From Halorussus marinus (lineage in GTDB: Archaea > Halobacteriota > Halobacteria > Halobacteriales > Haladaptataceae): a stretch of 64,000 nt of DNA. Made by a program: the position numbers and the translations under genes. The stretch spans positions 1-64,000 of the forward strand of contig NZ_SBIV01000006.1 in NCBI RefSeq assembly GCF_004765795.1, in the 5' to 3' direction. The notes under the pieces were generated by a model that ran no database searches, had not been told where the DNA came from, and saw only the letters and a program-made list of their open reading frames with translations. Below, piece after piece: positions 6,393 through 41,077 of this stretch (position 1 is the stretch's first letter; each line of letters opens with the position of its first letter).

Positions 6393-8768
6393 ATGACAAC
6401 GACAAACGACAAGATCCGCAGTGTGGTGCTGTCTGCGCTAATGGTCATGTCCGTATTCGCGGGCGCGACCGCCTTCGCAGGCTCAGCCGCAGCGAATCAC
6501 GGCGCAGACTCAGCAGAGTCGCTGACGACTCCCAATTCATATTGGGATGGTGAAGAGCTTACAATTGACATTACTAACATTTACGACGACGCTGTCGCCA
6601 ACGACGACACTCTCGAACTGCGCGAGTGGGACGGTAGTGACGACGGCGTCGGCTCCCGCGTCACGCAGATCCCGCTCTCCGAAGGGACCGCCACTCTCGA
6701 AGAGGACGGTCTCGACGGCCAGTACGTCATCACGACCACTGGCCGGGAGCCGATCGTCTTCGACTCCGAAGAGGGTCCTTTCCTCTATGAGGACGCCGGA
6801 GACGTGACCGGAACTTACTCGGAAAGCGACGCTGTGTTCTCGTTCTCCGAGCAGGAGTTCAACGTGACTCCCGACAGTGTCAACGTGAGCTCTGGCAGTA
6901 ACTCGATCACGGATGTCGAGATCGACTCGAACCGTGGCCGCTACAAAATCAACGTTTCCGCCGACGGCGACCTGAGCGCAAACGAACTCTACGATGCGTT
7001 CTATGGCGAACTCCCAGGTGACGCAGACGATCCTGTGAGTGAAGACAACATCGAAAAGCACAGCGCCGACGACGGTAGTCACAGTGAGGCCGGCACGCAA
7101 AGTTCAATCATCATCTCCGGCGCGTCGACCGATTCAGTTTACAGCGCCGACTTCAGTGAGTTCGAAACCGACGAGTACGAACTCACGTACCAGGTCGTCG
7201 ACGCAGCGGGCGAAGACACGATGGACGTCAACGTCTCGGAAGCCGGCGACGCCGATGTCCGACTCCCGAACGACGTTGTCTCGAACGAGCGCGGTGACGA
7301 CATCGAGTTCAACGTCTCGTTCGAAAACACCGAGACTGCCGACTTCCAGTTCGGTGACACCGAAGCCAACTTCGTGACTCGGTTCCGGGTCACGCAGGGT
7401 GATGACTTCGAGACAGACAACGTCACGCTGACCATCGAAACGGACGAAATCACCGACCAGAACGATCCGACTGAGTTCATCAATGCCGAGTACGGCTCGG
7501 TCACTGCGCCCGGCTACGACAGCAGTGGTGACGGCGATTACTACGGTGTCTGGACGGGCGGCAACATCGAGCTGGAGAACGATGACGGATCTGCCGTCAC
7601 GGACGACAAGAGCACGCTTGGGTCCGCGATCGCGAAAGGGAACTACGATCTGAGCGCGTACCTCACGGACACGGCTGACGCGTATCAGGATCGGGCCGAC
7701 AAGACGAGCATCAATATCGCGCAGCGCTCGACTGACGCTGTCGATACGTGGGTTATCCCTGACTCCGGGTCGCCGGACGACCTCGATGCGCTCCTCGATA
7801 AAGTTAACAACAGCGACACGATCACGTCCAGCGGTATGCTCGTTGTCGAGGTCCAGGCATCGGGAATCTACGGCTACATCGACGATACGGGCGACTTCAC
7901 TGGCTCGGATAACAACGAGGTCGGCCACGATGCAGACGACTACCTCGAAAACAACGGTAAGAACGGCGTCTTCGTGAACGTCACGCAAGACGACGCGGGT
8001 CCGAACGCGGTGTCGTCCCAGTACTACGCGACCGCCGCTCAGCAGTACTACGAGGATGCGGAGAACAACACGTTCTACCTCACCTTCGATACCTCCAGCA
8101 TGGGTAACGGCGACGGTCTCGTGACTGGCAACTCCTACACCGCGAACTTCTCGGTGCTCGAGGAGTACAACGCGTTCACCGACGATAATGAGGAAGTGTC
8201 CTCGGAGTTCAACTACGAAGAGCAGGATGTTGAGCTCAGCAATCTGAACGACGATGACGAGCTCATGCTCCCGAACTCGGAGAACGCGACGATCGAGGGC
8301 ACGAGCAACCTCCCGCCGGGTACCGAGGTCGATGTTGAGGTCGAATCCTCGGGTAACTACTGGTCGGACAACCCCGAACTCGACGCTGATGGCGAGTTCT
8401 CGACGAACTTCGACCTCACTGAGCTTGAGAACGGGACTGAAGTCGACGTAACTGCGTCCGCTGGTAGTGCCGAGCACGAAGTGAGTGCGACTATCATGTC
8501 CGACTACGAGCAGGACGGCGGCGAGGACGAGACGACGACCGAAGAGACGACCGAAGAGACGACCGAGGAGACGACCGAAGAGACGACCGAGGAGACGACC
8601 GAGGAGACGACCGAAGAGACGACCGAAGAGACGACCGAGGAGACGACCGAAGCGACCGAAACCACGGAAGGTGACGGTGGCGACGGTGGCATCCCCGGCT
8701 TCGGCATGGCTGTCTCGCTGGTCGCGCTCATCGCGGCCGCGCTGCTGGCAGTCCGCCGTAGCAACTAA
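6393..8768 (+). CDS. S-layer-type cell surface glycoprotein (PGF-CTERM, archaeosortase substrate)
   Basis: Haloarchaeal surface-glycoprotein signal peptide (KIRSVVLSALMVMSVFAG), many N-x-S/T sequons, Thr-rich spacer, IPGFG motif, TM helix and RR tail. Confidence 0.9.
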   Translation: MTTTNDKIRSVVLSALMVMSVFAGATAFAGSAAANHGADSAESLTTPNSYWDGEELTIDITNIYDDAVANDDTLELREWDGSDDGVGSRVTQIPLSEGTATLEEDGLDGQYVITTTGREPIVFDSEEGPFLYEDAGDVTGTYSESDAVFSFSEQEFNVTPDSVNVSSGSNSITDVEIDSNRGRYKINVSADGDLSANELYDAFYGELPGDADDPVSEDNIEKHSADDGSHSEAGTQSSIIISGASTDSVYSADFSEFETDEYELTYQVVDAAGEDTMDVNVSEAGDADVRLPNDVVSNERGDDIEFNVSFENTETADFQFGDTEANFVTRFRVTQGDDFETDNVTLTIETDEITDQNDPTEFINAEYGSVTAPGYDSSGDGDYYGVWTGGNIELENDDGSAVTDDKSTLGSAIAKGNYDLSAYLTDTADAYQDRADKTSINIAQRSTDAVDTWVIPDSGSPDDLDALLDKVNNSDTITSSGMLVVEVQASGIYGYIDDTGDFTGSDNNEVGHDADDYLENNGKNGVFVNVTQDDAGPNAVSSQYYATAAQQYYEDAENNTFYLTFDTSSMGNGDGLVTGNSYTANFSVLEEYNAFTDDNEEVSSEFNYEEQDVELSNLNDDDELMLPNSENATIEGTSNLPPGTEVDVEVESSGNYWSDNPELDADGEFSTNFDLTELENGTEVDVTASAGSAEHEVSATIMSDYEQDGGEDETTTEETTEETTEETTEETTEETTEETTEETTEETTEETTEATETTEGDGGDGGIPGFGMAVSLVALIAAALLAVRRSN
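8535..8654 (+). repeat. 12-bp coding tandem repeat ACGACCGARGAG x ~10 (TTEE linker)
   Basis: Directly visible; encodes the Thr/Glu-rich spacer. Confidence 0.95.
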
Positions 8769-8780
8769 CGTCCGCTAACC

Positions 8781-8803
8781 ATCGAACCCTCACCGGGTTC
8801 GAT
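8781..8803 (+). terminator. Hairpin downstream of the surface glycoprotein gene
   Basis: ATCGAACCC-TCACC-GGGTTCGAT perfect 9-bp stem, T-tract near 8828. Confidence 0.55.
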
Positions 8804-9009
8804 TTGACGTGCCCCTCGCAGCTTCCATTTTTGCGGTAATTACCTTGCGATCCGAATTATTGAATCCTTTACTCCAATTTTAATACGGATGTGGTGTACT
8901 CTAAACGTCCTGGCAGGTCCAGTGTCCCACATATATACTTATGAAACTACTATATGCTATTAATATCTACATCTAACTTTAGATATGATATATATAATAG
9001 AAGGTGCGG

Positions 9010-29968: not shown

Positions 29969-30172
29969 ATGGCGACCGACCCGCGCTGTCCCGACTGCGG
30001 CGTGACGATGGAAGGCGTCGACGTTCGAACTGGCGGCGGCTACGAACTCAGCGTCCAGACCGACGAGAAGCGCGAGGGCCTGCTGGGGTCGCTCGGGATG
30101 AACGAGTCTCTCGACGTCTCGCCGCGGCTCTGTCCGGAGTGTGGCCTCGTGCGGCTCTACGCCGACCTCTGA
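29969..30172 (+). CDS. CPxCG zinc-finger small protein (copy 1)
   Basis: CPDCG...CPECGLVRLYA. Confidence 0.85.
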   Translation: MATDPRCPDCGVTMEGVDVRTGGGYELSVQTDEKREGLLGSLGMNESLDVSPRLCPECGLVRLYADL

Positions 30173-30228: not shown

Positions 30229-30429
30229 ATGGCAGGCGACCCGCGCTGTCCGGACTGCGACGTCGCGCTGGAGGACGCCGAACTGTTCACGGGGCAGGGC
30301 GAACTGCGGGTCAGGACCGAGGCGGACGGCGACGACGTGCTCGCGGCGGTTGGGCTCAAGGAGGCGCTCGACGTGACGCCCCGGCGGTGTCCGGACTGCG
30401 GGCTGGTGCGGTTCTACGCGATCGAGTGA
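30229..30429 (+). CDS. CPxCG zinc-finger small protein (copy 2)
   Basis: CPDCD...CPDCGLVRFYA; ATG at 30229. Confidence 0.8.
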   Translation: MAGDPRCPDCDVALEDAELFTGQGELRVRTEADGDDVLAAVGLKEALDVTPRRCPDCGLVRFYAIE

Positions 30430-30468
30430 GGACCGACAGACCCCGCCGTCGGAACCGAACCGGCGGGA

Positions 30469-30474
30469 TTTAAG
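30469..30474 (+). promoter_or_regulatory. Probable native sucCD TATA box, stranded at attL
   Basis: TTTAAG at -32 to -27 from ATG 30501; the same motif starts at -30 before rps17e (52460). Confidence 0.65.
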
Positions 30475-30500
30475 CGACCGGCGGACGCCGTTTCGAGTGC

Positions 30501-30514
30501 ATGAAGCTCCACGA
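30501..30514 (+). repeat. attL: ATGAAGCTCCACGA (original sucC codons M-K-L-H)
   Basis: 13/14 identical to 41064-41077. Confidence 0.9.
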
Positions 30515-30575
30515 TTTTCATTCATAGGTTGCACGGAACTTTTTTGATTCAGCAGACCGTGTGTGACTTAGCGTC

Positions 30576-31889
30576 ATGACAGCCACGCCCCAAAGCGAAC
30601 TGAAAAGCCGACTTACCACGCTCGCGGAGAGCGCAGAAGACGGCGAAATCGACACTGACGACCACGACGCCATCAAGTCATTCATCGCCGCCTACAACCC
30701 AAACGACCTGCTGGAAACGCCGCCCGGCAACGACTCGACTCTGAAAACCGGAACCTGCAACGTCTACATCTCCCGTCTCACCGAAGCAGCCCGACGAATC
30801 ACGCTCACTGACGCTACCGCTGACGACGTGAACGGGATTCTTCAATCGCTCAGCGACGCTGACCGCTCCGAGTGGACCGTTCACGGCTATTCAACGGCCT
30901 TCCGCAAATTCTACACTTATTACGAGGGCGGACCTGACCCTGACGAGATTACTATGATAGACACGCCGAACGAAAGTGCGTTTAGCCCTGACGATATGCT
31001 TACGCCCGACGAAATCCACGAGTTACTCAACAGCGCCGATAATCCGCGCGACCGCGCCGTATTCGCGCTGCTCATATACACCGGAATGCGGAACAACGCC
31101 CTCCGTACACTCCGCATTGGCGACGTTTATCCACAGGAAGGCGAATGGCAGGTCAACACCGACCGAACAGACGGCCTGAAAGGCGTTGAAAAGTACGGAC
31201 AGCGGCGGCCGCTGTTAGCTGCTGTCAAACCCGTCCGCGACTGGCTTTCCTACCATCCGGAGAGCGACAACCCCGACGCCTACCTCATCACGGGCCGACC
31301 AAAGTACGGGAAGTCTGACCCCTCCAGCCCGGTCGCCGGGTCAACTATTCGGCGCGTCGTTGACCGCCTTGTTGACGCCGCCGACAATCCGTCCATCAAC
31401 CGCAAGCCGACGCACCCACACATGATGCGGCACAATTTCGTCACCATATGTAAGAGAGATTATGGTCTGCCCGACGAAACAGTCAAACATTTTATCGGTC
31501 ATTCGCCCAGCTCGCGGGTCATGGAAACGACCTACTCCCACCTGTCGGATGAAGACCACATCGAGCGCGCCGAGGTGGCGGCAGGACTCCGCGAGCCGTC
31601 CGAGGACGACTCGCCGCTCACGCCCAAAGGTCCGTGCCCGACCTGCGACGAGCCACTTGCTCCCGGCGCGAAGGCGTGTCCCAACTGTGGGCAGGTGTTC
31701 ACTCCCGATGCGAAGGCTATTGAAGACAAAATCGATACCGACCTGAAACAGTCCTACGCCCGAGTGGACCCAGACGACGAAAGCACACAGGAAGCGCTTA
31801 ACGCCCTCGACACACTCACTCAACACCCTGACATCCTTAAGAAGCTCACACAAAACTCTGAAACAATAGAAAAACTCCGTGATAAATAG
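30576..31889 (+). CDS. Tyrosine integrase with C-terminal double zinc ribbon
   Basis: RDRAVFALLIYTGMR, LKG, HPHMMRH, IGH, TTYSH; CPTC...CPNCG. Confidence 0.95.
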   Translation: MTATPQSELKSRLTTLAESAEDGEIDTDDHDAIKSFIAAYNPNDLLETPPGNDSTLKTGTCNVYISRLTEAARRITLTDATADDVNGILQSLSDADRSEWTVHGYSTAFRKFYTYYEGGPDPDEITMIDTPNESAFSPDDMLTPDEIHELLNSADNPRDRAVFALLIYTGMRNNALRTLRIGDVYPQEGEWQVNTDRTDGLKGVEKYGQRRPLLAAVKPVRDWLSYHPESDNPDAYLITGRPKYGKSDPSSPVAGSTIRRVVDRLVDAADNPSINRKPTHPHMMRHNFVTICKRDYGLPDETVKHFIGHSPSSRVMETTYSHLSDEDHIERAEVAAGLREPSEDDSPLTPKGPCPTCDEPLAPGAKACPNCGQVFTPDAKAIEDKIDTDLKQSYARVDPDDESTQEALNALDTLTQHPDILKKLTQNSETIEKLRDK

Positions 31890-31910
31890 AATGGGAGAAG
31901 AGTGACGGGC

Positions 31911-32192
31911 TCAGTCGTCCGCTGCCGTCTCGGCGAGGTACCAACACCTCCAGCAGGCCAGCAGCGCGTCGTGGTCCGACTCGGCCAGCGCGTCCCCGTC
32001 GTTGCGGTCACACCGCGCGCCGTGGTTGAGCCCGAGCGCGTCCGCCCGCTCGACCGCGTCGAACGCCGCCGCGCCGGGCTCCGTCTCGTCGGCCCGCCTG
32101 CCGTCGTCGCGCGGCTCGGGCGCCGCGTCGCGCGCCATTGCCGCCCGCTCACGCCGGTACCCGCGCCGGAGCTCCGCGAGCTCTCGGTCCAT
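31911..32192 (-). CDS. Hypothetical protein (His/Cys, CWRC)
   Basis: 93 aa directly downstream of the SWIM gene. Confidence 0.55.
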   Translation of the reverse strand: MDRELAELRRGYRRERAAMARDAAPEPRDDGRRADETEPGAAAFDAVERADALGLNHGARCDRNDGDALAESDHDALLACWRCWYLAETAADD

Positions 32193-32193
32193 C

Positions 32194-32619
32194 TCAGTCG
32201 TCCCCCTCGACGGTCACACGCCCGCCGTCAGTCGCCACAGCGCCCGTCTCAGCCGTCGCCGCGACCGCCGCCTCGACCCGCGCCCGCCGCTCGTCAAACC
32301 GAGCGATGAGGCGCTCGTCAAACGCGCGCTCGTCGTCCGCCGCATCGAGCACGGCGCCGAGCTGCGCGTCGCGGGCGCCGGTCCAGAATTGGACCCGTCG
32401 GACGTGCTTGCAGCCGCCCTCGGGCGAGCGGTGCTGGTAATCGGGGCAGGTGCAGCGCCCCTCAATGTGGTCGACCTCGTACCGCGTGCCCTCCTCACTG
32501 TAGATTTCGTACACGCCGCCGCCGACCGCGTGGGGCAGCAGGTGCTCGGTGAGAGCGCGCACGTCGCGGGCGTCGAGATTTTCGAGCGTTTCAAGTTCGT
32601 CGGTGGTTTTCTCGCACAT
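32194..32619 (-). CDS. SWIM zinc-finger protein
   Basis: CTCPD-x8-GCKH; ends with 'ATDGG'. Confidence 0.85.
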   Translation of the reverse strand: MCEKTTDELETLENLDARDVRALTEHLLPHAVGGGVYEIYSEEGTRYEVDHIEGRCTCPDYQHRSPEGGCKHVRRVQFWTGARDAQLGAVLDAADDERAFDERLIARFDERRARVEAAVAATAETGAVATDGGRVTVEGDD

Positions 32620-32855
32620 GGGTTCTCAGCTCCGTGAGAAGCCCACCCGGCCGGGCGTGCCAGCGCCCGGGCGTTTTCCGTACCGCCACGCCCCGAGGGC
32701 CGTGTGTTCTCCTCATTTAATTCGTACGTGCGTATTTACCTTAAACCCTGATATCGGCTTCGAAGGATGTTCTTGTGCAATTAGTACGTTTGTGCGAACA
32801 AAGTAATAGGGCGTACATACGAACATTTTTCTGTTTATCGCTCATTCGTGTAAGC

Positions 32856-33131
32856 ATGGGAAACGGGGACCCCGAGAGTAGTAGCGGCCGCCCGCGCCGC
32901 GTCAGCGACGACGACATTCTCCACGCCGTCCGCGAGGTCGCCCGAGAGGACCGCGTCGCCACAACCAGCGAGGTCGAGGACCGCGTCGCTCTCTCCCGCC
33001 GCGGCGTCCAAAAACGCCTACGCGACCTCCACGAGCGCGGCAAAATCCAGAGCAAAGAGGTTGGCGCACGAGGGCGCGTTTGGTGGGTTGAAGATAGTCA
33101 CTTGCCCGACAACGAGGATAACACTGAGTGA
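32856..33131 (+). CDS. Winged-HTH regulator (probable repressor)
   Basis: TTSEVEDRVALSRRGVQKRLRDLHERGKIQSKEVGARGRVWW; divergent from the SWIM gene across an AT-rich spacer. Confidence 0.85.
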   Translation: MGNGDPESSSGRPRRVSDDDILHAVREVAREDRVATTSEVEDRVALSRRGVQKRLRDLHERGKIQSKEVGARGRVWWVEDSHLPDNEDNTE

Positions 33132-33176
33132 GAAGTTAGTCGGGTCGAAAAGGGTCTACCGTCGTCTTCTTACGAT

Positions 33177-33488
33177 TTAATTCTCAGACGTAGCTGATTC
33201 GGGCTCGTGGAGTGTAATTGTTCCATCAGTCTCAACCTGAACAGTGTAACTGTCGTATTTAAACTGGACTTGACCATCTGTGGTACGGGGTATTCCGCTT
33301 GACCGAGGGCCGAAAAGCGCGTCGAGAGCCTCTGGGTCAATGAAATTCGAAAGAACCGCCAACTCGGCCGGTTCAGCATCATTCAATGCGGCAACAGCGG
33401 AGATGAGTTCCTCGCTTACGGATTCTTCTTCGGGATTGCACGTTGTCTGATACGTCGTTGAATTTTCTGTGTTCGAGTCGTTAGTCAT
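33177..33488 (-). CDS. HalOD1 output domain protein (element-borne)
   Basis: IDPEALDALF...VQFKYDSYTVQVETDG. Confidence 0.85.
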   Translation of the reverse strand: MTNDSNTENSTTYQTTCNPEEESVSEELISAVAALNDAEPAELAVLSNFIDPEALDALFGPRSSGIPRTTDGQVQFKYDSYTVQVETDGTITLHEPESATSEN

Positions 33489-33499
33489 GGGGGCTGATA

Positions 33500-34565
33500 C
33501 TCACAGACATAAGTACGTGAAGACATCTGGAACTTCGATCCGATTGAGTGCAGAGAGCGCAGCATCACGAAGATCGTCGAGTGTGTCGAACAGACGGTTT
33601 CCAAGTTCTTGATCGAGTTGTCGCCAGCACTCTTCCGCGGGGTTCAGCTCTGGTGAACCCCGCGGAAGGTAACACAGTTCGATCGGCGTGTCTTCGACGA
33701 ATTCCTGCACTGCGTTGGCCGTAAAATACGAGGCGTTGTCCAAGACAACGCAGATTTTCTCGCCGAACTCGGTTTGGAGGGCGTCTAGCAAGCGAATCGT
33801 CGTGTCGCTGTTGAAGTTCTCGGCACAGGGGAGAAAGAACGTTTCTCCGGAATCGCTGACCGCACCGAGCAGCTTGATGCTGTCCCACGCGCCCGTCACC
33901 GGCAGTGACGGGCGCTCTCCTTCTGGAAACCACGCATAGATCAGCGTCGAGAGTACCTGGCGCGTCTGATCGATGGTCAGGATCGTGTATTCATCGTCCA
34001 AGTTGTCGCGCTTTTTTTGAACCCTTCCTGCCAGGCTTCTTGGGCCCTTTCGTCGGATTTGTAGAACTCCGGCCGGGCTGTCTTCCAGGACAGCCCGGCC
34101 TCAGACATCAATCGTCGGACGTGGCGTTCACAGTACTCAACATCGAATTCTTCGGCAAGGTAGTGACGAGCTAGTGGAACAGACCACGCGGGCGCATCTA
34201 GCCCAGCTTCCTCGGGTGATTCGTGGAGTGCCTCAACGAACTTGTCGTGCTGTTGGCCAGAGAGCTCAGACGGTCTCCCGGAACGGTGTTCGTCGTAGAC
34301 AACCTCCTCGAACGGCTCGTCGGCGAGCCGTTCGAGTCGGTCAAGCCAGCGTGAGAGCCAGCCAGCAGTGTATCCGTAGCGTTCAGCAACATCTTCCATC
34401 GTCGCTTCGTCTTCTTCGAGGGAGTTGATCGCCGCCATAACCCGCTGTGTCGGCTTTTTCCCCTCGACCTCTGCCAAGACCTGGCGGAGGTCGTCGGTAG
34501 ATACGTCGTTGAGGGAAGCCATATCAGAACAACGTCTTCCTATTTGAAAAAGATTCAGCCGTCAG
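33500..34565 (-). mobile_element. IS630-family insertion sequence
   Basis: TA on both sides (33498-99, 34566-67), imperfect ends CTCACAG / CTGACGG, split transposase. Confidence 0.85.
33501..34522 (-). CDS. IS630 transposase in two ORFs joined by a probable programmed -1 frameshift
   Basis: ORF A HTH (33977-34522); ORF B DDE (IDQT, LDNASY, SPELNPAE); A7G slippery site at 34011-34018. Confidence 0.88.
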
Positions 34566-34914
34566 TATGATTACGAGATAGTTAGTTGGCTAATACAAAT
34601 CCATCGGTGATTTTCGCTCAGAATTCTTTTTGATAAAGTGAACGATTTCCTCAAACGCTCACGGTGCGGCATTACTCATCCTCGGCAGCACCCAGCGGCC
34701 ACTCCCCGCGGGCCTTCAGTGTTCACGCGCGGCTCGACCCCGGCGCGGCCCGGTCTGCTCACGCTCAACCCCCGGGGTCCGGCCGCCCGTCACGGGGCTC
34801 GCGCCGCCGCAGTCAGCCGAGTATCCGTCTCGGCGTCCCCGCGGTCGGCGTCGGCGCACCACCGCCGACGCCACCGCCACCACACCACCGCCGCCCCCCG
34901 CCCGAGAGCCGCGC

Positions 34915-35589
34915 TCACGCGCCCGAGGCGTGGTCGCCGAGCGTTGTCTGCCGTTCGAACCGTTCAAGAATATTATACCGCTCACCGCGCGTCACGCTCG
35001 TCGTGTCGACGCTCTCGACCCCGAGCGCCTCAGCCCACGCCAGCGCGTCCGCGAACCCCGCCGCCGGCGGCCGCCCGATATGTACCGACAGCCCCGCGTC
35101 GTGGGCCGCCTCGGTCAGCTCCTCGGCGTGCGACAGCTTCCAGCGGTCCGACCCGCCGATGAACACGGTCGCCGCGTTCACGGCCTCCGCGAGCGCCAGC
35201 ACCCGCGCCGGCGTCATCCCGTCCTGTGCCGCGACCGCTCGGGGCAGCGTCGAGCTCCCGAGCCCCCGCGCGTCGAGCCGCTTCGCGAACGTTCGGGTTC
35301 GCAGCTCCGACGCGTCGGCGTCGCCGACCACGTCCGGCAGCACCACAAACTCCGGCTCGCGCCCGTTCGCGCGCTCCGGTATCTCCTCAACCCGCGACAG
35401 CCACGCGTCCGCCGACCACTCCTCGGGGCGCTCACGCGCCGCGAAACACCCGTTGTCGAGCGCGTAGGGCACGTTCACGCCCGCCGTGAATCGCTCCGGC
35501 AGCCACATCGCGCCGTGACAGTGCGAGGGCGCCGCCGCTCGACACTTCCGCAGCTTCTCGACCGTCGGCACGCCGTGTAAAATCAGCAT
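34915..35589 (-). CDS. TGT-fold transglycosylase, DpdA-like
   Basis: ALDNGCF, LPDVVGD, AQDG, FIGG, VHIG and SVDTTS appear in TGT motif order. Confidence 0.7.
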   Translation of the reverse strand: MLILHGVPTVEKLRKCRAAAPSHCHGAMWLPERFTAGVNVPYALDNGCFAARERPEEWSADAWLSRVEEIPERANGREPEFVVLPDVVGDADASELRTRTFAKRLDARGLGSSTLPRAVAAQDGMTPARVLALAEAVNAATVFIGGSDRWKLSHAEELTEAAHDAGLSVHIGRPPAAGFADALAWAEALGVESVDTTSVTRGERYNILERFERQTTLGDHASGA

Positions 35590-35600
35590 GGGGCGCCGGG

Positions 35601-36206
35601 TTATCGTCGGTCGCCCTCGTCGTCGTCGTCACCCGGCGGCCATTTCCCCCGGCGCTTGAGCCGCTTGCGCTCGCTCTCGTACGCCGGTCGACCGCGCCGA
35701 ACCATCCGCCCGTTCACGTTCAGACGGTCCGGCCCCTCGGGCTCGTCGCCGTCGCCGTCGTCGGCGTTCGCCGAGAGGTTCTCGCTGTATTGCTCCATCG
35801 TCCCATTAATCGCCGCGTCCGAGCCCGAGGCGTCGGCGTTCGCCGAGAGCGCGCCCGGGCCGTCGACGTTGGTCGCGCCGCGTTCACGCGCCGTCCCGGC
35901 GGGCATCCCGCCCGAGTCGTCGTCGCGGTCGAGCTCCTTGACGGCGTCGCGCGACGCCTTCGCGTGGGGGGTTCCGAACCCCGGGCCGGGGATGTCGTGG
36001 CCCGCGACCGCGTTCGCCGCCAGCGTGTTCACGTCGCCGCTCACGGGGCTCGCGCCGGTCATATCCGCCACGATGAGCGCCATATCCCGCAGCACGTCGG
36101 TATCGAACGTGCGGAGGGCGGCCTCGTCGCGGTCGGTGTTCGCCGCGATAGTCTTGATGAACGTCGCTCGCGTCGCGTCGTCGTCGTGGTCGTCGTCGTT
36201 CGTCAT
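35601..36206 (-). CDS. Acidic low-complexity hypothetical protein with basic C-terminus
   Basis: 201 aa from ATG 36206; TTATAA at about 36391 upstream. Confidence 0.65.
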   Translation of the reverse strand: MTNDDDHDDDATRATFIKTIAANTDRDEAALRTFDTDVLRDMALIVADMTGASPVSGDVNTLAANAVAGHDIPGPGFGTPHAKASRDAVKELDRDDDSGGMPAGTARERGATNVDGPGALSANADASGSDAAINGTMEQYSENLSANADDGDGDEPEGPDRLNVNGRMVRRGRPAYESERKRLKRRGKWPPGDDDDEGDRR

Positions 36207-36425
36207 GGTAGTGTCGTGGTGTCGAGGCGCCGCCGGTGCCCGCCGCTCTCGTCGTCGCGCTCGTCGCTGCTCGCGGCTCGGCTCGTCGTCGCTCAACCGC
36301 TGGAGGGCACGCCGTCGCACTCTATCGGGGTGTTACCGCGCCTCAACCATCAGTGTTCCCCACAGAGCCCCGCAGAAACGCCTACTTGCGTTATAACCGC
36401 GTTAAATCCCTTCGTTCAGCTCAGC

Positions 36426-36701
36426 TCAGACCGACAGTAACTCCTCAATATCCTCCTGGTCGAGCTCACCGTCCCGAATCCGCTCCCCAATCGCCTCCGG
36501 GTCGTGTCCACGCGCCCGCAGCTCGCCCCGCACCTCCCGCGGCGCGAACGGCAGTGACTCCGCCAGCACCCGCCACGGCGCGCTCCGCAGCCGCGCCGCA
36601 CGCCGCTCCGACTCGTCCGACGGGTCGAACGCCAGCCGCCCCTCATCGTCTAACAGCGCGCTCCCACTCCCGCTCTCGTCGCCGCTGTCACGGTTACTCA
36701 T
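36426..36701 (-). CDS. Hypothetical protein
   Basis: 91 aa acidic, GAGGTG RBS-like sequence upstream. Confidence 0.6.
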   Translation of the reverse strand: MSNRDSGDESGSGSALLDDEGRLAFDPSDESERRAARLRSAPWRVLAESLPFAPREVRGELRARGHDPEAIGERIRDGELDQEDIEELLSV

Positions 36702-36777
36702 ACCCGCCGCTCACACCTCGACCCCATTGATTCTTCCCCACCGCCGCGAACGTCCGAGCGCCACGCTCACGCCCTTC

Positions 36778-37656
36778 TCACGCGCCCTCGCTCTCACTCT
36801 CGCTCCCGTCCTCGACCTCGGCCTCACCCGCCTCAGCGTCGAGTTCCACGTCGTCGTCGCTCGCCGCCGGCGGGTCCAGCAGCGTCGCCCGGTCGCCCTC
36901 GTTCACATCATCGTCTGACAACCACAACGCGAGCTGCCCGCGCGCTACGTCGTCCTCAATCACATCTGCCGGCGCCTCACCCCGCTGCGCCCACTCCGGC
37001 GGCTCGTCCGGAATCTCCACGTCCGACTGGTCCTCCACGATGGTTTTCCGCGACCGCCACCGGCTAATCTCCCCCACGCGCTCCAGCGCCGCGTCCAGCT
37101 CCTCCGCGTCCCACTCTCCCGACCCCAGCCCACTGTGCTCACGGTCCCCGCTCCCGCCGTGTTCACGCGCCCCTCGGCCCCCGACGCTGTCGCCGCCCCC
37201 GTCGAGGTCGGCGTCGAGCCCGAGCACGTCAGCCCACGCCCGCGCCTCTTTCCCCGCCTTCTCCAACGCCCGCCAATCCTCCTCGCCCGCGTCGAGCAGG
37301 CCACGAACCACTCGGTTCCGTACCACCGACAGGTCCGCCACGAAGTCCTCACGGTCTACGTTCTCCGCGAGATACGTCCGGAGCCGCTTCTTGTCCTTAC
37401 AGATGGTTGCCGCCGACACGTCACACTCCTCTGCCCATCGTGACGGGCTCACGTCGTCCACCGTCGTCGGCCCCGACTCCGACAGCACCAACTCCAGCAG
37501 GTACGCCCGGCGCTCACGCCACCCCATCTCCGCCGGCGCCTTGTCGCCCGGCACGCTCACCTCCATGTAGTCCACACGCGGTCCCTCACCGCCGTCGTCG
37601 TCATCGTCGCTATCGCTCCCGCTCGCCGTGTTCGTGGTCGTGTTCTTCGCCGTCAT
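36778..37656 (-). CDS. HTH-containing protein of haloarchaeal mobile elements
   Basis: ERRAYLLELV...SPSRWAEECDVSAATICKDKKRL followed by helical and acidic regions. Confidence 0.7.
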   Translation of the reverse strand: MTAKNTTTNTASGSDSDDDDDGGEGPRVDYMEVSVPGDKAPAEMGWRERRAYLLELVLSESGPTTVDDVSPSRWAEECDVSAATICKDKKRLRTYLAENVDREDFVADLSVVRNRVVRGLLDAGEEDWRALEKAGKEARAWADVLGLDADLDGGGDSVGGRGAREHGGSGDREHSGLGSGEWDAEELDAALERVGEISRWRSRKTIVEDQSDVEIPDEPPEWAQRGEAPADVIEDDVARGQLALWLSDDDVNEGDRATLLDPPAASDDDVELDAEAGEAEVEDGSESESEGA

Positions 37657-38211
37657 ACTAAACCGATATTTACCGTTTACCGCTCCCGCTCCTTGGGGTT
37701 TCCGCCGCGAGCGGAGCCCACACGCTAAAATTCAGGCATCCCAACGCCGACGAAAGGAGCTCACGATTCCCGCGAATCTATCGTATCCTGCGGCTATTGG
37801 CAGCTTAGGCCCTCATCGACCACTTCAAACTCCAGAGAAAGACATTCAGTGCAGGCAGGGTCGAAAGGTAGCACTTCACCGCTCTTTAAGCGTGCTCTCC
37901 GAGTTTCCCCGCATTGGACACATTCAATCGTAATGACCGTCACTGTTAGACCGTGAATCGCTCGGGAATTATAAATCCGCAGTTGTATTGCGACAGTTGC
38001 ACGGGCAATTCTGACTAATGAAGCCGTGCTACCAATTACGTTTAGTCACACGCTGCGCCCCCGAGCCGCGCGACCGCCTCGACCGCGACCACCACCCACC
38101 CGGAGCGCGAGCAGGAGTGGGGCCAAAGCGCGCTGGCAGGGTAAGATAACCCCGCAGATTTCTCAGCGAGCGCGAGCGGCCCTGAAACGCCGCTCCAAGT
38201 AAGTACAGCAC

Positions 38212-38393
38212 CCCATGCGAAGAACCCATAACTGGCTCCCGCCTCGACCGCTCTCGACCCGGACGCAACCGCCGCGAGAACGGCCACACGCCGCCAGAGA
38301 GCGGCGTGAACACGCCGCGACCCCCGGCGTCTCAAACACGCCACCACCACATTAAGAGAGCTAAGCGGCCCATGCGAAGAACCCCTTACTGGC
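38212..38393. repeat. Two 25-bp direct repeats, candidate origin region
   Basis: CCCATGCGAAGAACCC(ATA/CTT)ACTGGC at 38212-38236 and 38369-38393. Confidence 0.75.
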
Positions 38394-38602
38394 CTCGGTA
38401 CCCGGCCCGCTCGACGCCGTCGACTCGTCGAAACACCCCACACAGAATATGGAATCTCACCGAGCATCTCACTCGACAAACGTGAATCGGCCGAGCAGTT
38501 CGAGCACCCGACACTCTCGACGTGTTCACACGCCGCGCCGAACAGCGCCGCCGCTCGCGACCGCACCGCGTCGAGCCCGGCCGGGGTCACGCGCCCCCGG
38601 CG

Positions 38603-40237
38603 TCAATCCGCCGGCGGTGACTCGACCGGCGGCGGGTCTTCCGGTATCTGCGCCGGCCGCGGCCGCCCGAGCTCCTCCCACTCCTCGCGGGCCTCCCGCA
38701 GCGCGTCGAGCGTCGCGTCGTCACGCGCCTCGACCCACGACTCGTCGCCGAGGTACTCGTCGGCCTCCCACATCGGCCGCAACTGGCCGCGACAGCGGGG
38801 CGCCGAGGTCGAGGTCGACTCAGCGTCGGCCTCGCTCTCGTCGCCACTGCTCGCCCCTGTGGGGTCGTCAACGAACGCCGGCCGATGGTCGCTTCCCGCC
38901 GGCACGTCCCACGCTCTGGACTGCGCCGAGGCGTCCCACGCCTCGGCCTCGGTCGCGTCGAGCTCGCCCGCCGGCGCGGGTGCGTCGTCGCTCCCGTTCC
39001 ACGTCGCCCGCGGCCCGAGGTCGTCGGGCGCCCGCCCGGTGGCAGTCACACCCGACCCCGACGCGACCCGGACCGCCGCCGGCGTCTCGGGTGTCGCGGG
39101 GTCGCGCGGCTCGGCGTCGGCGTCGGCGTGGTCGTGCGCGTCGGCGTCGGCGTCCTCGACCGGCGCCGAGCAGCGGGGTTCGGGAAACTCGACGCCGAGC
39201 ACGTCGGGCGCCGCGGACCGCAGCGCCGCCGTCGCCTCGGCGCGCACGTCGTCGTACGCCTCGAAATTCGCCACCTCACCGAATTGCCGGATTGCCGACC
39301 GAAACGCGCCGTCGTCGCCGAGCCGCAGCCCGGTGTGACTCACCGCGTACAGCGTCGCCCGCGCCAGCGCGACGAGGTCGCGGATAGACGTCGAGGAGTC
39401 CGGGTCGGCCTCGGTGATTCGCTCGACCACCACGCCGGTCTGCTCCTCTATCTCACGCGTCACAGCGCCGCCCTCAACCCAGTCCGAGACGGCGATAACG
39501 TGGAAGTGGGGCGCGTAGACCAGAAACTCGTCGCGGACGGCCTCCCACGTCCAGTCGTCGCTCTCGACCTTCCCGAGCACGTCCGCCCACGTCATATCGC
39601 CGTCGCCCGACTCGTGACCCTTCACCTCGCCGCGATACTCCTCGGTGATTCGCCACGGGTGATAGATTATCGTCCCCGTATCTACACTGATTTGCCGCAT
39701 CAGACGCTTTACGACCTGAAACCCGCGGTCGAGCGGGTCTTTGGCGTTCACGCGGAACCCGATTCCGGCGAGCGAAACCGTGAGGTGGTGTTTCTTGACG
39801 CTCCGGCCGGATTGGGCGCCCCACGTCTTCGCGAGCGACTGGGTTTTGGCGACCGGCTCGACCGCCCGCTGGAACGCCCACGACTGCCAGCAGCGCGGAC
39901 ACCGCGAGCGCCGGCATGTCCGGCCGACCGAGACGGGCTCCCCGCAGTCGCCACAGAACAGCGCCGATATCTCGTCGCCGCAGTCGTCGCCCTTCGCGCC
40001 CGAGCCCGGCGAGACGCCCTCGGTCAGCTCGTCGTCGTACGCTCGACCGTCCGGCTCGCTCACCTCAATCGCGTTCCACGTCTCCCGGTCCGGGTGGAGG
40101 GTCACGCGCCGCCGGTCGTGGTCGGCGTCCTCGGGCGCGTCCGTCTCGAAACACACTGCCGACGCGGTCGAGCTGTCGGCCGCGCGGCTCGACCCCGGCG
40201 TGTCCGGTACGCCCGCCGGCGTCCCCGGTGGGCTCAT
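38603..40237 (-). CDS. HUH-superfamily rolling-circle replication initiator with Cys-rich N-terminus
   Basis: CGDC-x8-C-x4-CPRC; motif I HLTVS, motif II PHFHVI, motif III YAVSH; GGAGGTGA RBS. Confidence 0.8.
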   Translation of the reverse strand: MSPPGTPAGVPDTPGSSRAADSSTASAVCFETDAPEDADHDRRRVTLHPDRETWNAIEVSEPDGRAYDDELTEGVSPGSGAKGDDCGDEISALFCGDCGEPVSVGRTCRRSRCPRCWQSWAFQRAVEPVAKTQSLAKTWGAQSGRSVKKHHLTVSLAGIGFRVNAKDPLDRGFQVVKRLMRQISVDTGTIIYHPWRITEEYRGEVKGHESGDGDMTWADVLGKVESDDWTWEAVRDEFLVYAPHFHVIAVSDWVEGGAVTREIEEQTGVVVERITEADPDSSTSIRDLVALARATLYAVSHTGLRLGDDGAFRSAIRQFGEVANFEAYDDVRAEATAALRSAAPDVLGVEFPEPRCSAPVEDADADAHDHADADAEPRDPATPETPAAVRVASGSGVTATGRAPDDLGPRATWNGSDDAPAPAGELDATEAEAWDASAQSRAWDVPAGSDHRPAFVDDPTGASSGDESEADAESTSTSAPRCRGQLRPMWEADEYLGDESWVEARDDATLDALREAREEWEELGRPRPAQIPEDPPPVESPPAD

Positions 40238-40371
40238 CTGCTCACCTCCCGGTCGCCTTGGTCACCGCGGTTGTGGTCGCTGTCGTCGCGGTCAACGTGG
40301 TTGTTGTCGTCCGTCTCGAAATAAATCGCGCTTCGCGTTGTCGGTCGCCTCCTCGTTATCGTGTCCGGCAT
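40234..40371 (-). CDS. 45-aa ORF overlapping the rep start (ATGA)
   Basis: MPDTITRRRPTTRSAIYFETDDNNHVDRD...; not in the ORF track. Confidence 0.45.
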   Translation of the reverse strand: MPDTITRRRPTTRSAIYFETDDNNHVDRDDSDHNRGDQGDREVSR

Positions 40372-40397
40372 CGACGCGCGCGGGGGGTTGCTCCAAC

Positions 40398-40541
40398 TCA
40401 CTCGTCCGCGACCTCCAATAGCACCTCGGCCACGTCAGAAGCTGGGAGGTCACTTTCGGCGAGGGCTTCGAGGTCTTCTCGGTGCTCGTTGATTCGTTCG
40501 GTGGCGTCGTTCGAGTCGTAGGCGTCGCTGGTCGTGTGCAT
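40398..40541 (-). CDS. 47-aa acidic helical protein
   Basis: MHTTSDAYDSNDATERINEHREDLEALAESDLPASDVAEVLLEVADE*; not in the ORF track. Confidence 0.65.
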   Translation of the reverse strand: MHTTSDAYDSNDATERINEHREDLEALAESDLPASDVAEVLLEVADE

Positions 40542-41063
40542 CTTAGTCGATAGACTGCTTGATAATCACATGACCCGACAGACGGAGGTCGCCCAAATGC
40601 TCAAGAAGCCGGAGATACGACTAACGAACGAACCTCAACCGGTGTCGGTTGTGGGTTCGTTGTCGTCTCCGACGAGCATTCCGCCCGTCTGGGGTCATCA
40701 CGGTGCTGAGCGTCGGGGTGAGGGTTAATCACCGCCACTACCCCGGCGCTTTCTTCCGTTCTGGCGTGTCCTGTTTTGAGAGACGGGTGGGCTCGCGTCA
40801 ACTAAAGCACTGCGCAAGATTCATGGCTCTCAAGGCCTGAGAACGCAGAAATCGCAACTTCGTTGCTAACGCCGTTATCGTATATGTGTCATTACTCTCC
40901 GATAGATTTCAGGAATCTCCATCCAGCAAAAGGACCGAAATGCTAACTTTGTTTGATTCCGGTTGTGGAGACGCCGAGGTAGGCTCGCTTTTGGGGCGTG
41001 GCCTCCTCGGCGGATTCCGATACTACTAACTCTCGTCCGAGGAAAATACCGTGCGAGCCACTA

Positions 41064-41077
41064 ATGAAACTCCACGA
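41064..41077 (+). repeat. attR: ATGAAACTCCACGA (replacement sucC start)
   Basis: Matches 30501-30514 with one synonymous change (AAG/AAA). Confidence 0.9.

Follow-up and report, generated by a model that had tools for sequence, protein, structure and literature searches.

We analysed a 64,000-nt window of the haloarchaeon Halorussus marinus (contig NZ_SBIV01000006.1, positions 1 to 64,000) and located in it a mobile element of 10,562 bp (positions 30516-41077) at the start codon of sucC. This element is probably best explained as an intact, mosaic integrative rolling-circle plasmid, or "cryptic integrated element", a reading to which we give a probability of about 0.5. Its integration and its rolling-circle replication are well supported by the sequence. 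The gene map was assembled from lists of open reading frames (ORFs), codon-position GC content and three hidden Markov model (HMM) libraries (Pfam, PHROGs and NCBIfam). All genes of the element are open, and the insertion sequence (IS) of the IS630 type that it contains lies between genes. The element is present as a single copy in the 3.76-Mb assembly.

The element is bounded by imperfect 14-nt direct repeats, which correspond to the first 14 nt of sucC. The left copy (attL, ATGAAGCTCCACGA, 30502-30515) follows the native sucC promoter region, which has a TTTAAG box 26 nt upstream of the ATG, and the left junction reads [sucC promoter]-ATGAAGCTCCACGA-TTTTCA. The right copy (attR, ATGAAACTCCACGA, 41064-41077) provides the start codon and the next 11 nt of the intact sucC, and the right junction reads ACTA-ATGAAACTCCACGA-ATATCAGGCG. 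Alignment with empty sites in two genomes of the same genus (G410:C148 and G176:C1) showed the sucC promoter stretch joined directly to ATGAAACTCCACGAGTATCAGG. Because the promoter is continuous with the sucC start in these genomes, the element spans 30516-41077 and entered at the first sucC codons. An earlier note on this DNA had placed a sucC-associated element at 30515..41063; the association with sucC was borne out, and the repeats and empty sites corrected the borders. No tRNA gene was found near the element, and an Rfam search over it gave 0 matches. GC content is 65-73% in the flanks, 52-60% over 30500-34500, and higher once more across the leftward block of genes. A blastn search with 34507-41063 found no DNA similarity among 50,697 phage records, and its sole match among plasmid records was a 62-nt piece beside the IS. 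The same query was run against 400 Halobacteria genomes, with up to two first-look candidates scored per genome; the matches listed were to GC-rich acidic repeats (92% identity at most), to Rep homologues and to the 62-nt piece, and no perfect CRISPR-spacer-like match was among them.

Insertion separated sucC from its native promoter (30440-30575 and 41000-41077). The former promoter, with its start codon, now faces the integrase gene and leads into a mini-ORF of 8 codons (ATG AAG CTC CAC GAT TTT CAT TCA TAG). sucC itself must be driven from the right arm of the element, a non-coding stretch of 520 nt (40542..41063) that now supplies whatever promoter is used; no TTTAAG-like box was found there at the native distance. 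Just left of the sucC promoter lie two tandem, paralogous small Zn-ribbon genes (29969-30172 and 30229-30429), which have a 57-nt repeat at 81% and encode proteins that are 54% identical; in relatives, this type of gene is not always a neighbour of sucC.

The integrase gene (30576..31889, plus strand) begins 61 nt inside attL. It encodes a tyrosine integrase of 437 aa with a catalytic domain (PF00589, 3.3e-18; 66.5 bits against a cut-off of 27.1) that is followed by a zinc ribbon (Zn_ribbon_3, 1.8e-5). The nearest viral relative is the integrase of Halorubrum tailed virus 27 (HRTV-27; 42.5% identity over 93% of the length). Furthermore, the protein is 41-43% identical to the integrases of two elements in genomes G150 and G160, which are bounded by a 17-nt repeat (TGCTACAAGCACGCCTT / TGTTACAAGCACGCCTT) in the 5' part of taw1 and have the layout seen in the window: host promoter and 5' fragment, integrase gene, element, intact gene. 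Judged by these sites, members of this integrase clade target housekeeping genes at their 5' ends (sucC, taw1). The G150 element (9,281 bp; locus L066, G150:C2:2043086-2052367) encodes the integrase, a small protein like m47 of the window's element (described below), a primase-helicase, a helix-turn-helix (HTH) protein of phrog_15023 and five small orphan ORFs, with no TerL; it repeats the layout of the window's element with a different replicon. The G160 element (33,369 bp; loci L063 and L078, G160:C1:1286844-1320213) encodes the integrase, an m47-like protein, a primase-helicase, the HTH protein and the large terminase TerL, the last two being its only virion-related genes; Pfam, applied to 20 of its ORFs, detected neither a portal nor a capsid gene. 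Its TerL gene is followed by a Dpd-like cluster of QueC, FolE, QueD, two homologues of tRNA-guanine transglycosylase (TGT), two large DEAD/MZB helicases and a PLD nuclease. The G160 locus is a defence island on a terminase-bearing element without detected capsid genes.

The replication protein Rep (38603..40237, minus strand, 544 aa) can be assigned by sequence to the described SNJ1 RepA / IS91-like HUH family. It matched the experimentally studied RepA of the sphaerolipovirus SNJ1 (29.6% identity over 56% of the query, E 2e-23) and the HJIV-1 homologue of this protein. In an alignment of eight sequences, an N-terminal Cys cluster, the P-H-x-H motif (PHFHVI) and the Y..SH motif were invariant in 8/8; the Tyr of the last motif is the putative catalytic residue. 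Homologues were found in 15 of 400 other Halobacteria genomes (E <= 1e-10) and in none of six from the same genus. The closest relatives lie on a 9,895-bp contig (50% identity), on a 5,884-bp contig with an 89-nt terminal overlap (47%) and on a 5,545-bp metagenome contig whose rep is split over the contig ends, all of which are small circular plasmids. Rep is also 35.7% identical to the first (rep-position) gene of an 11.6-kb Halobacterium litoreum plasmid, and the clade occurs mostly on circular plasmids of 5.5-12 kb. The earlier note had offered an integrative rolling-circle plasmid that could not be assigned to a described group; the plasmid part stands, and the family above, together with the cryptic integrated elements, provides the assignment. 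A passage of PMC12642351 states that SNJ1 replicates by rolling circle via RepA. We rejected a Rep-Arvir (DUF7845) identity, as Pfam gave no match and a passage of PMC13107129 describes that family as distinct. A search of PDB sequences with Rep returned nothing meaningful.

Downstream of rep lies a non-coding region of 946 nt (37657..38602, minus strand) that contains CTTACCCTGCC at 38135-38145 on the Rep-sense strand. This 11-nt motif, CTTAYCCTGCC, was present downstream of rep in seven of eight elements, 180-700 nt past the stop codon (the exception is L036), and it occurs once in the 3.76-Mb genome, at this position. The same region contains a 25-nt direct repeat pair (38212-38236 and 38369-38393; 23/25 identical). 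Repeats had been reported here before; they are present but modest, consisting of this pair and the Rep-family motif. On the other side, the start of rep is overlapped by the putative coding micro-ORF m55 (40234..40401, minus strand; no family), which is preceded by the gene for the small acidic protein m47 (40398..40541, minus strand). Homologues of m47 (42-55% identity) precede the replication genes of L063, L065 and L066. In L065, the m47-like gene is followed by a 429-aa protein with an HLHVV (HUH-like) motif (7587-8876), whose homologue in same-genus G176 (L097:8484-9332) is immediately followed by a DpdA-like gene with 52% identity to that of the window. Sister elements may use this HLHVV protein as a Rep of a different family.

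Pfam, PHROGs, NCBIfam and scans for transmembrane segments and P-loops revealed no membrane, ATPase, capsid or transfer gene in the element. Across the 14 assigned proteins, no 19-residue window exceeded a hydrophobicity of 1.33, and the pattern [AG]xxxxGK[ST] had its sole match in the integrase. PHROGs placed none of the assigned genes in a structural family, and 20 further ORFs from non-coding stretches and overlapping frames had no PHROG match. Of the hallmarks of pleolipoviruses and sphaerolipoviruses (membrane spike, capsid proteins, NTPase), none was seen, in that there was no transmembrane or P-loop protein and no structural PHROG. These results agree with the earlier claim that the element lacks a transmembrane spike, ATPase, capsid or conjugation gene. 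Its proposed gene order was likewise confirmed (integrase, a divergent SWIM/winged-HTH region, and a leftward block of two micro-ORFs, Rep, HTH protein, two hypotheticals and the TGT-like gene), as was its size of ~9.5 kb without the IS. The gene list was incomplete by one gene, p93 (31911-32192, minus strand), which follows the SWIM-like ORF.

The HTH protein p292 (36778..37656, minus strand) consists of a winged HTH with a helical hairpin (residues 25-150; phrog_15023, 1.4e-14) and a unique acidic C-terminal half. In its structural model, the winged HTH had a pLDDT above 90 and the hairpin one of 60-68. Foldseek gave no match at E <= 0.001, a wide VIA search gave generic winged-HTH and helical-hairpin rows (best Z 6.5) with no TerS in the top 50, and PHROGs gave no TerS match for the family. 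A word-based protein search returned p292 itself alone, as acidic low-complexity words swamped it. Homologues were found in 14 of 400 other genomes (10 loci examined with 10-kb flanks and four with 1.5-kb flanks), and a scan of genome contigs with a narrower p292 alignment gave at least six loci. The gene stands directly before TerL in L057 (4-nt overlap), in L058 (9-nt gap, followed by portal and MuF), in L063 of G160 (8-nt overlap) and in the IMG/VR contig L079 (3-nt gap), and in HSTV-1 the two genes are neighbours across the ends of the record. Of the isolated tailed haloviruses, six have the gene; in 5/5 isolates whose maps were examined, TerL follows it on the same strand at a distance of 0.1-2.5 kb. 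In HCTV-2, HHTV-2, Hardycor1 and PhiCh1 it is 1-2.5 kb from TerL and not immediately upstream. The slot before TerL is filled in HCTV-2-like genomes by a phrog_21336 gene with weak TerS matches (1.5e-6), and the PhiCh1 record gives the name terS to a different gene. hhalign detected no similarity between the p292 family and the TerS-slot gene of L064. The window itself has no TerL. The family also occurs on circular contigs of 9.1 kb and 11.2 kb, behind a primase-like gene and without TerL. A predicted complex of the G160 TerL with its p292-like neighbour scored 0.01, which gives no verdict and counts neither way. ESM Atlas neighbours of the p292 HTH domain were 69-88% viral, which we treat as a lead only.

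Two side observations concern this family. A circular plasmid of ~9 kb was recovered twice in different rotations, as L062 (G107:C15) and as L072 (Halolamina salina, NZ_JBHUDH010000044.1), and encodes a primase-like protein of 1167 aa, a phrog_15023 HTH protein, a 383-aa orphan and a winged HTH of phrog_18890/15732. In L051, L060, L073 and L074, the phrog_15023 gene is followed by one or two tandem copies of a gene for an acidic 311-aa protein, for which no family was found.

The leftward block ends with a gene for a minimal DpdA-like transglycosylase of 224 aa (34915..35589, minus strand; phrog_15826, 3.6e-28). The protein matches phage genes annotated as "DpdA-like tRNA-guanine transglycosylase", and its nearest annotated relatives are in actinophages. 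Its model (pLDDT 92.7) indicates a TGT-type TIM-barrel fold: the top 50 VIA rows were all TGT (Z 15.4, rmsd 3.5, 210/224 residues aligned), and in Foldseek the lowest E-values went to transaldolases and the highest TM to TGT (0.59-0.64). Neither Pfam TGT (PF01702) nor DpdA4 (DUF6610, PF20314) was called at E <= 0.01, and a search of PDB sequences gave nothing meaningful. D45, N46, D86, D90, Q122, D123, S193 and D195 were invariant in 37 sequences including the window's, and we infer that these residues are equivalent to the catalytic Asp residues of TGT. The family was found in 16 of 400 other Halobacteria genomes. One relative lies 2.6 kb before TerL, portal, protease and major capsid protein genes in provirus L112, which resembles contig C13 (see below), and others stand beside an HUH-like Rep in the same genus or beside ParA or replication genes elsewhere. 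The host encodes QueC, and preQ0 should therefore be available.

The same assembly contains a possible partner. Contig C13 (42.7 kb, GC 63.5%, loci L069-L071) encodes an integrase, ParA, a SWIM-type protein of phrog_17897 and a PCNA-like factor, together with TerL, portal, protease, a capsid-type protein and tail proteins. It looks like a head-tailed (pro)virus or plasmid-prophage and is a candidate helper. C13 has no phrog_15023 gene and no DNA in common with the element.

For an integrative plasmid, the gene content suggests the following course. The integrase would recombine attL and attR into a 10.6-kb circle, a divergent pair of SWIM-like and winged-HTH regulators would set the switch, and Rep would nick at or near the 11-nt motif and so drive rolling-circle replication. 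The DpdA-like enzyme might exchange guanines of the element DNA for 7-deazaguanine derived from the host preQ0 pool, which would protect this DNA in a new host. Several observations weigh against the plasmid reading. A plain plasmid leaves the virus-flavoured genes (phrog_15023, phrog_17897, phrog_18890, the DpdA-like gene and the HRTV-27-type integrase) unexplained. Eight Rep-bearing genome loci and two reference records have no gene other than Rep in common with the element; the "plasmid family" is therefore a module and not a conserved backbone. In addition, the 11-nt motif is a candidate nick site or double-strand origin by its conservation and position, and the hairpins flanking it are unconvincing by energy: they beat nearly all shuffles in only 2/7 sequences, with z-scores of -0.4 to -3.0 and one of +1.1.

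The virus-type genes would be accounted for if the element were a helper-dependent satellite of a head-tailed halovirus, comparable to the phage-inducible chromosomal islands (PICIs) of bacteria. Upon induction, such a satellite would excise and multiply by rolling circle, p292 would act as a TerS-like or late-gene factor that diverts the large terminase and capsids of the helper, and protection of the packaged DNA against restriction would fall to the DpdA-like enzyme. We consider this a possible explanation, one that falls short of an even chance and rests on gene position. The strongest hint is the G160 element with the HTH protein and TerL as its only virion-related genes, and the G150 element, with integrase, primase-helicase and HTH protein and no TerL, points in the same direction. 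So do the immediate adjacency of the p292 family to TerL in four loci and in HSTV-1, its place upstream of TerL in all five mapped isolates, the similarity to the HRTV-27 integrase, the DpdA-like gene near the packaging genes of L112, the presence of C13 in the same genome and, as a lead, the viral ESM Atlas neighbours. However, the TerS role of p292 is positional, since PHROGs and the structure searches gave no TerS; other genes hold the TerS slot or name in HCTV-2-like genomes and PhiCh1; a plasmid function is as likely on the circular 9.1-kb and 11.2-kb contigs; and C13, the candidate helper, lacks both the gene and any DNA in common with the element. A third explanation, that a tailed, pleolipo- or sphaerolipovirus provirus lost its structural genes by deletion, might appeal to the Rep held in common with SNJ1 alongside genes of tailed viruses, to the IS already inside the element, and to the p292-like locus L059, whose decay is visible in its fragments of methylase and replication genes. 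We regard it as unlikely, because both att copies, the integrase gene, rep and every other ORF are intact and no fragment of a virion gene was found in the 20 extra ORFs with PHROGs. The phage records likewise gave no DNA similarity, the assigned proteins have no transmembrane segment or P-loop apart from the P-loop-like string of the integrase, and the same size and layout recur independently in G150 (9.3 kb) and in the circular 9-11 kb contigs.

The integrative plasmid reading has a close precedent. A passage of PMC6563490 terms archaeal integrated elements with an SNJ1-like Rep and no virion genes "cryptic integrated elements", and one of these as described there, the thaumarchaeal NitAQ6f-E2, likewise combines an integrase with a replication gene of the same Rep family, short att repeats and no virion or conjugation hallmark. 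It belongs to a different phylum; here the target is the sucC start codon and the cargo includes a DpdA-like gene and a packaging-proximal HTH gene of tailed viruses. SNJ1 (Simuloviridae) and small haloarchaeal rolling-circle plasmids resemble the element in the Cys cluster, HUH and Tyr motifs of Rep and in a non-coding stretch with CTTAYCCTGCC after rep; SNJ1 itself is a virus that persists as an episome and encodes capsid proteins and a packaging ATPase; it has no integrase and, Rep aside, no gene in common with the element.

PICIs, including the SaPIs, are bacterial satellites that likewise have about a quarter of the genome size of a tailed virus, an integrase at one end, divergent regulators, their own replicon and no capsid genes, and the element might also have a TerS-like gene. 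It has an integrase with att sites, its own replication module with a candidate origin motif, and no full virion module. In contrast to PICIs, with which it has no homology, its replicon is a rolling-circle Rep instead of a primase-helicase (pri-rep), and its host is an archaeon. Among archaeal viruses, pSSVx, pSSVi and the SRCE satellites of spindle-shaped haloviruses, as proposed in a 2025 preprint (10.1101/2025.02.15.638363), similarly join a plasmid-type replicon (including rolling-circle Reps) to a morphogenesis or packaging fragment of a virus. They differ in carrying a spindle-virus ATPase or capsid protein, whereas the element is integrated and has genes of head-tailed viruses. According to that preprint, pSSVx and pSSVi were the only ones described until it made its own proposal, and a 2026 preprint names an Asgard satellite. 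A full-text literature search found no report of satellites of head-tailed archaeal viruses, though preprint supplements may list others. Archaeal virus satellites have thus far been known or proposed only for spindle-shaped viruses, and a tailed-virus satellite would be new, if true. A further possibility, less likely than not, is that the element represents a PICI-like satellite of head-tailed archaeal viruses, the first of its kind, in which an integrated rolling-circle replicon would rely on a terminase-associated HTH protein for packaging into the capsids of a helper halovirus and on a minimal DpdA for protection of its DNA against restriction; the wider set of 8-11 kb haloarchaeal elements to which it would belong (G150 and the circular 9-11 kb contigs) would then all be satellites of this kind. 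The element and its G150 and G160 relatives form a concrete, testable candidate set in culturable haloarchaea. The analysis also yielded a conserved motif as candidate origin of the SNJ1 RepA family, an integrase clade at the 5' ends of housekeeping genes, and the 224-aa TGT-fold enzyme, which may be the smallest DpdA type. A passage of PMC10516641 describes DpdA as a signature of modified viral DNA and notes singleton dpdA genes without synthesis genes in some archaeal viruses; the element's gene likewise encodes a TGT-fold enzyme on a mobile element and differs in being neither DpdA4/DUF6610 nor PF01702 by HMM and in its length of only 224 aa.

The control region of the element comprises two divergent genes. 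On the minus strand, a SWIM-like Zn-finger protein of 141 aa (32194..32619; phrog_17897, 6.5e-14) is 37% identical to the product of a C13 gene; the earlier "SWIM" label goes back to a CxC...CxH pattern in the translation, and Pfam calls nothing here. On the plus strand, a winged-HTH regulator of 118 aa (32775..33131; phrog_18890 "transcriptional regulator", 1.5e-7) starts from a GTG, with an ATG 28 codons in, and has a homologue on the 9-kb plasmid L062. The remaining proteins, all encoded on the minus strand, are largely orphans. p93 (31911..32192), downstream of the SWIM-like gene, is acidic, with a third-position GC (GC3) of 0.93 and no PHROG. p239 (35601..36320; an internal Met at residue 38 would move the start to 36209) and p91 (36426..36701) are acidic and without a family in Pfam, PHROGs or NCBIfam. 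p239 has no transmembrane segment or P-loop, and the three libraries lend no support to its former description as "scaffold-like". As single queries against viral contigs, p239, p292 and Rep found no relative.

The cargo includes a small protein of the HalOD1 / DdfA family (33177..33488, minus strand; PF18545, 3.3e-21), which passes the NCBIfam cut-off for DdfA (disk-determining factor; NF053557, 79.4 bits against 70). The IS lies 6 nt upstream of its start codon. This IS630-type IS (33494..34568, minus strand) encodes its transposase in two overlapping ORFs (33977-34522 and 33501-34001; DDE_3 1.7e-32, HTH_33 2e-18). Two other copies, on contigs C19 and C20, are 83-88% identical over 33494-34506, and the right end is uncertain (34506-34568). 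At 84-90% identity, the 62-nt piece to the right (34507-34568) also occurs elsewhere, namely in a plasmid of Halopenitus, whose annotation includes it in an ABC permease gene, and in at least four other genomes. This piece could be either the actual end of the IS or a short mobile repeat.

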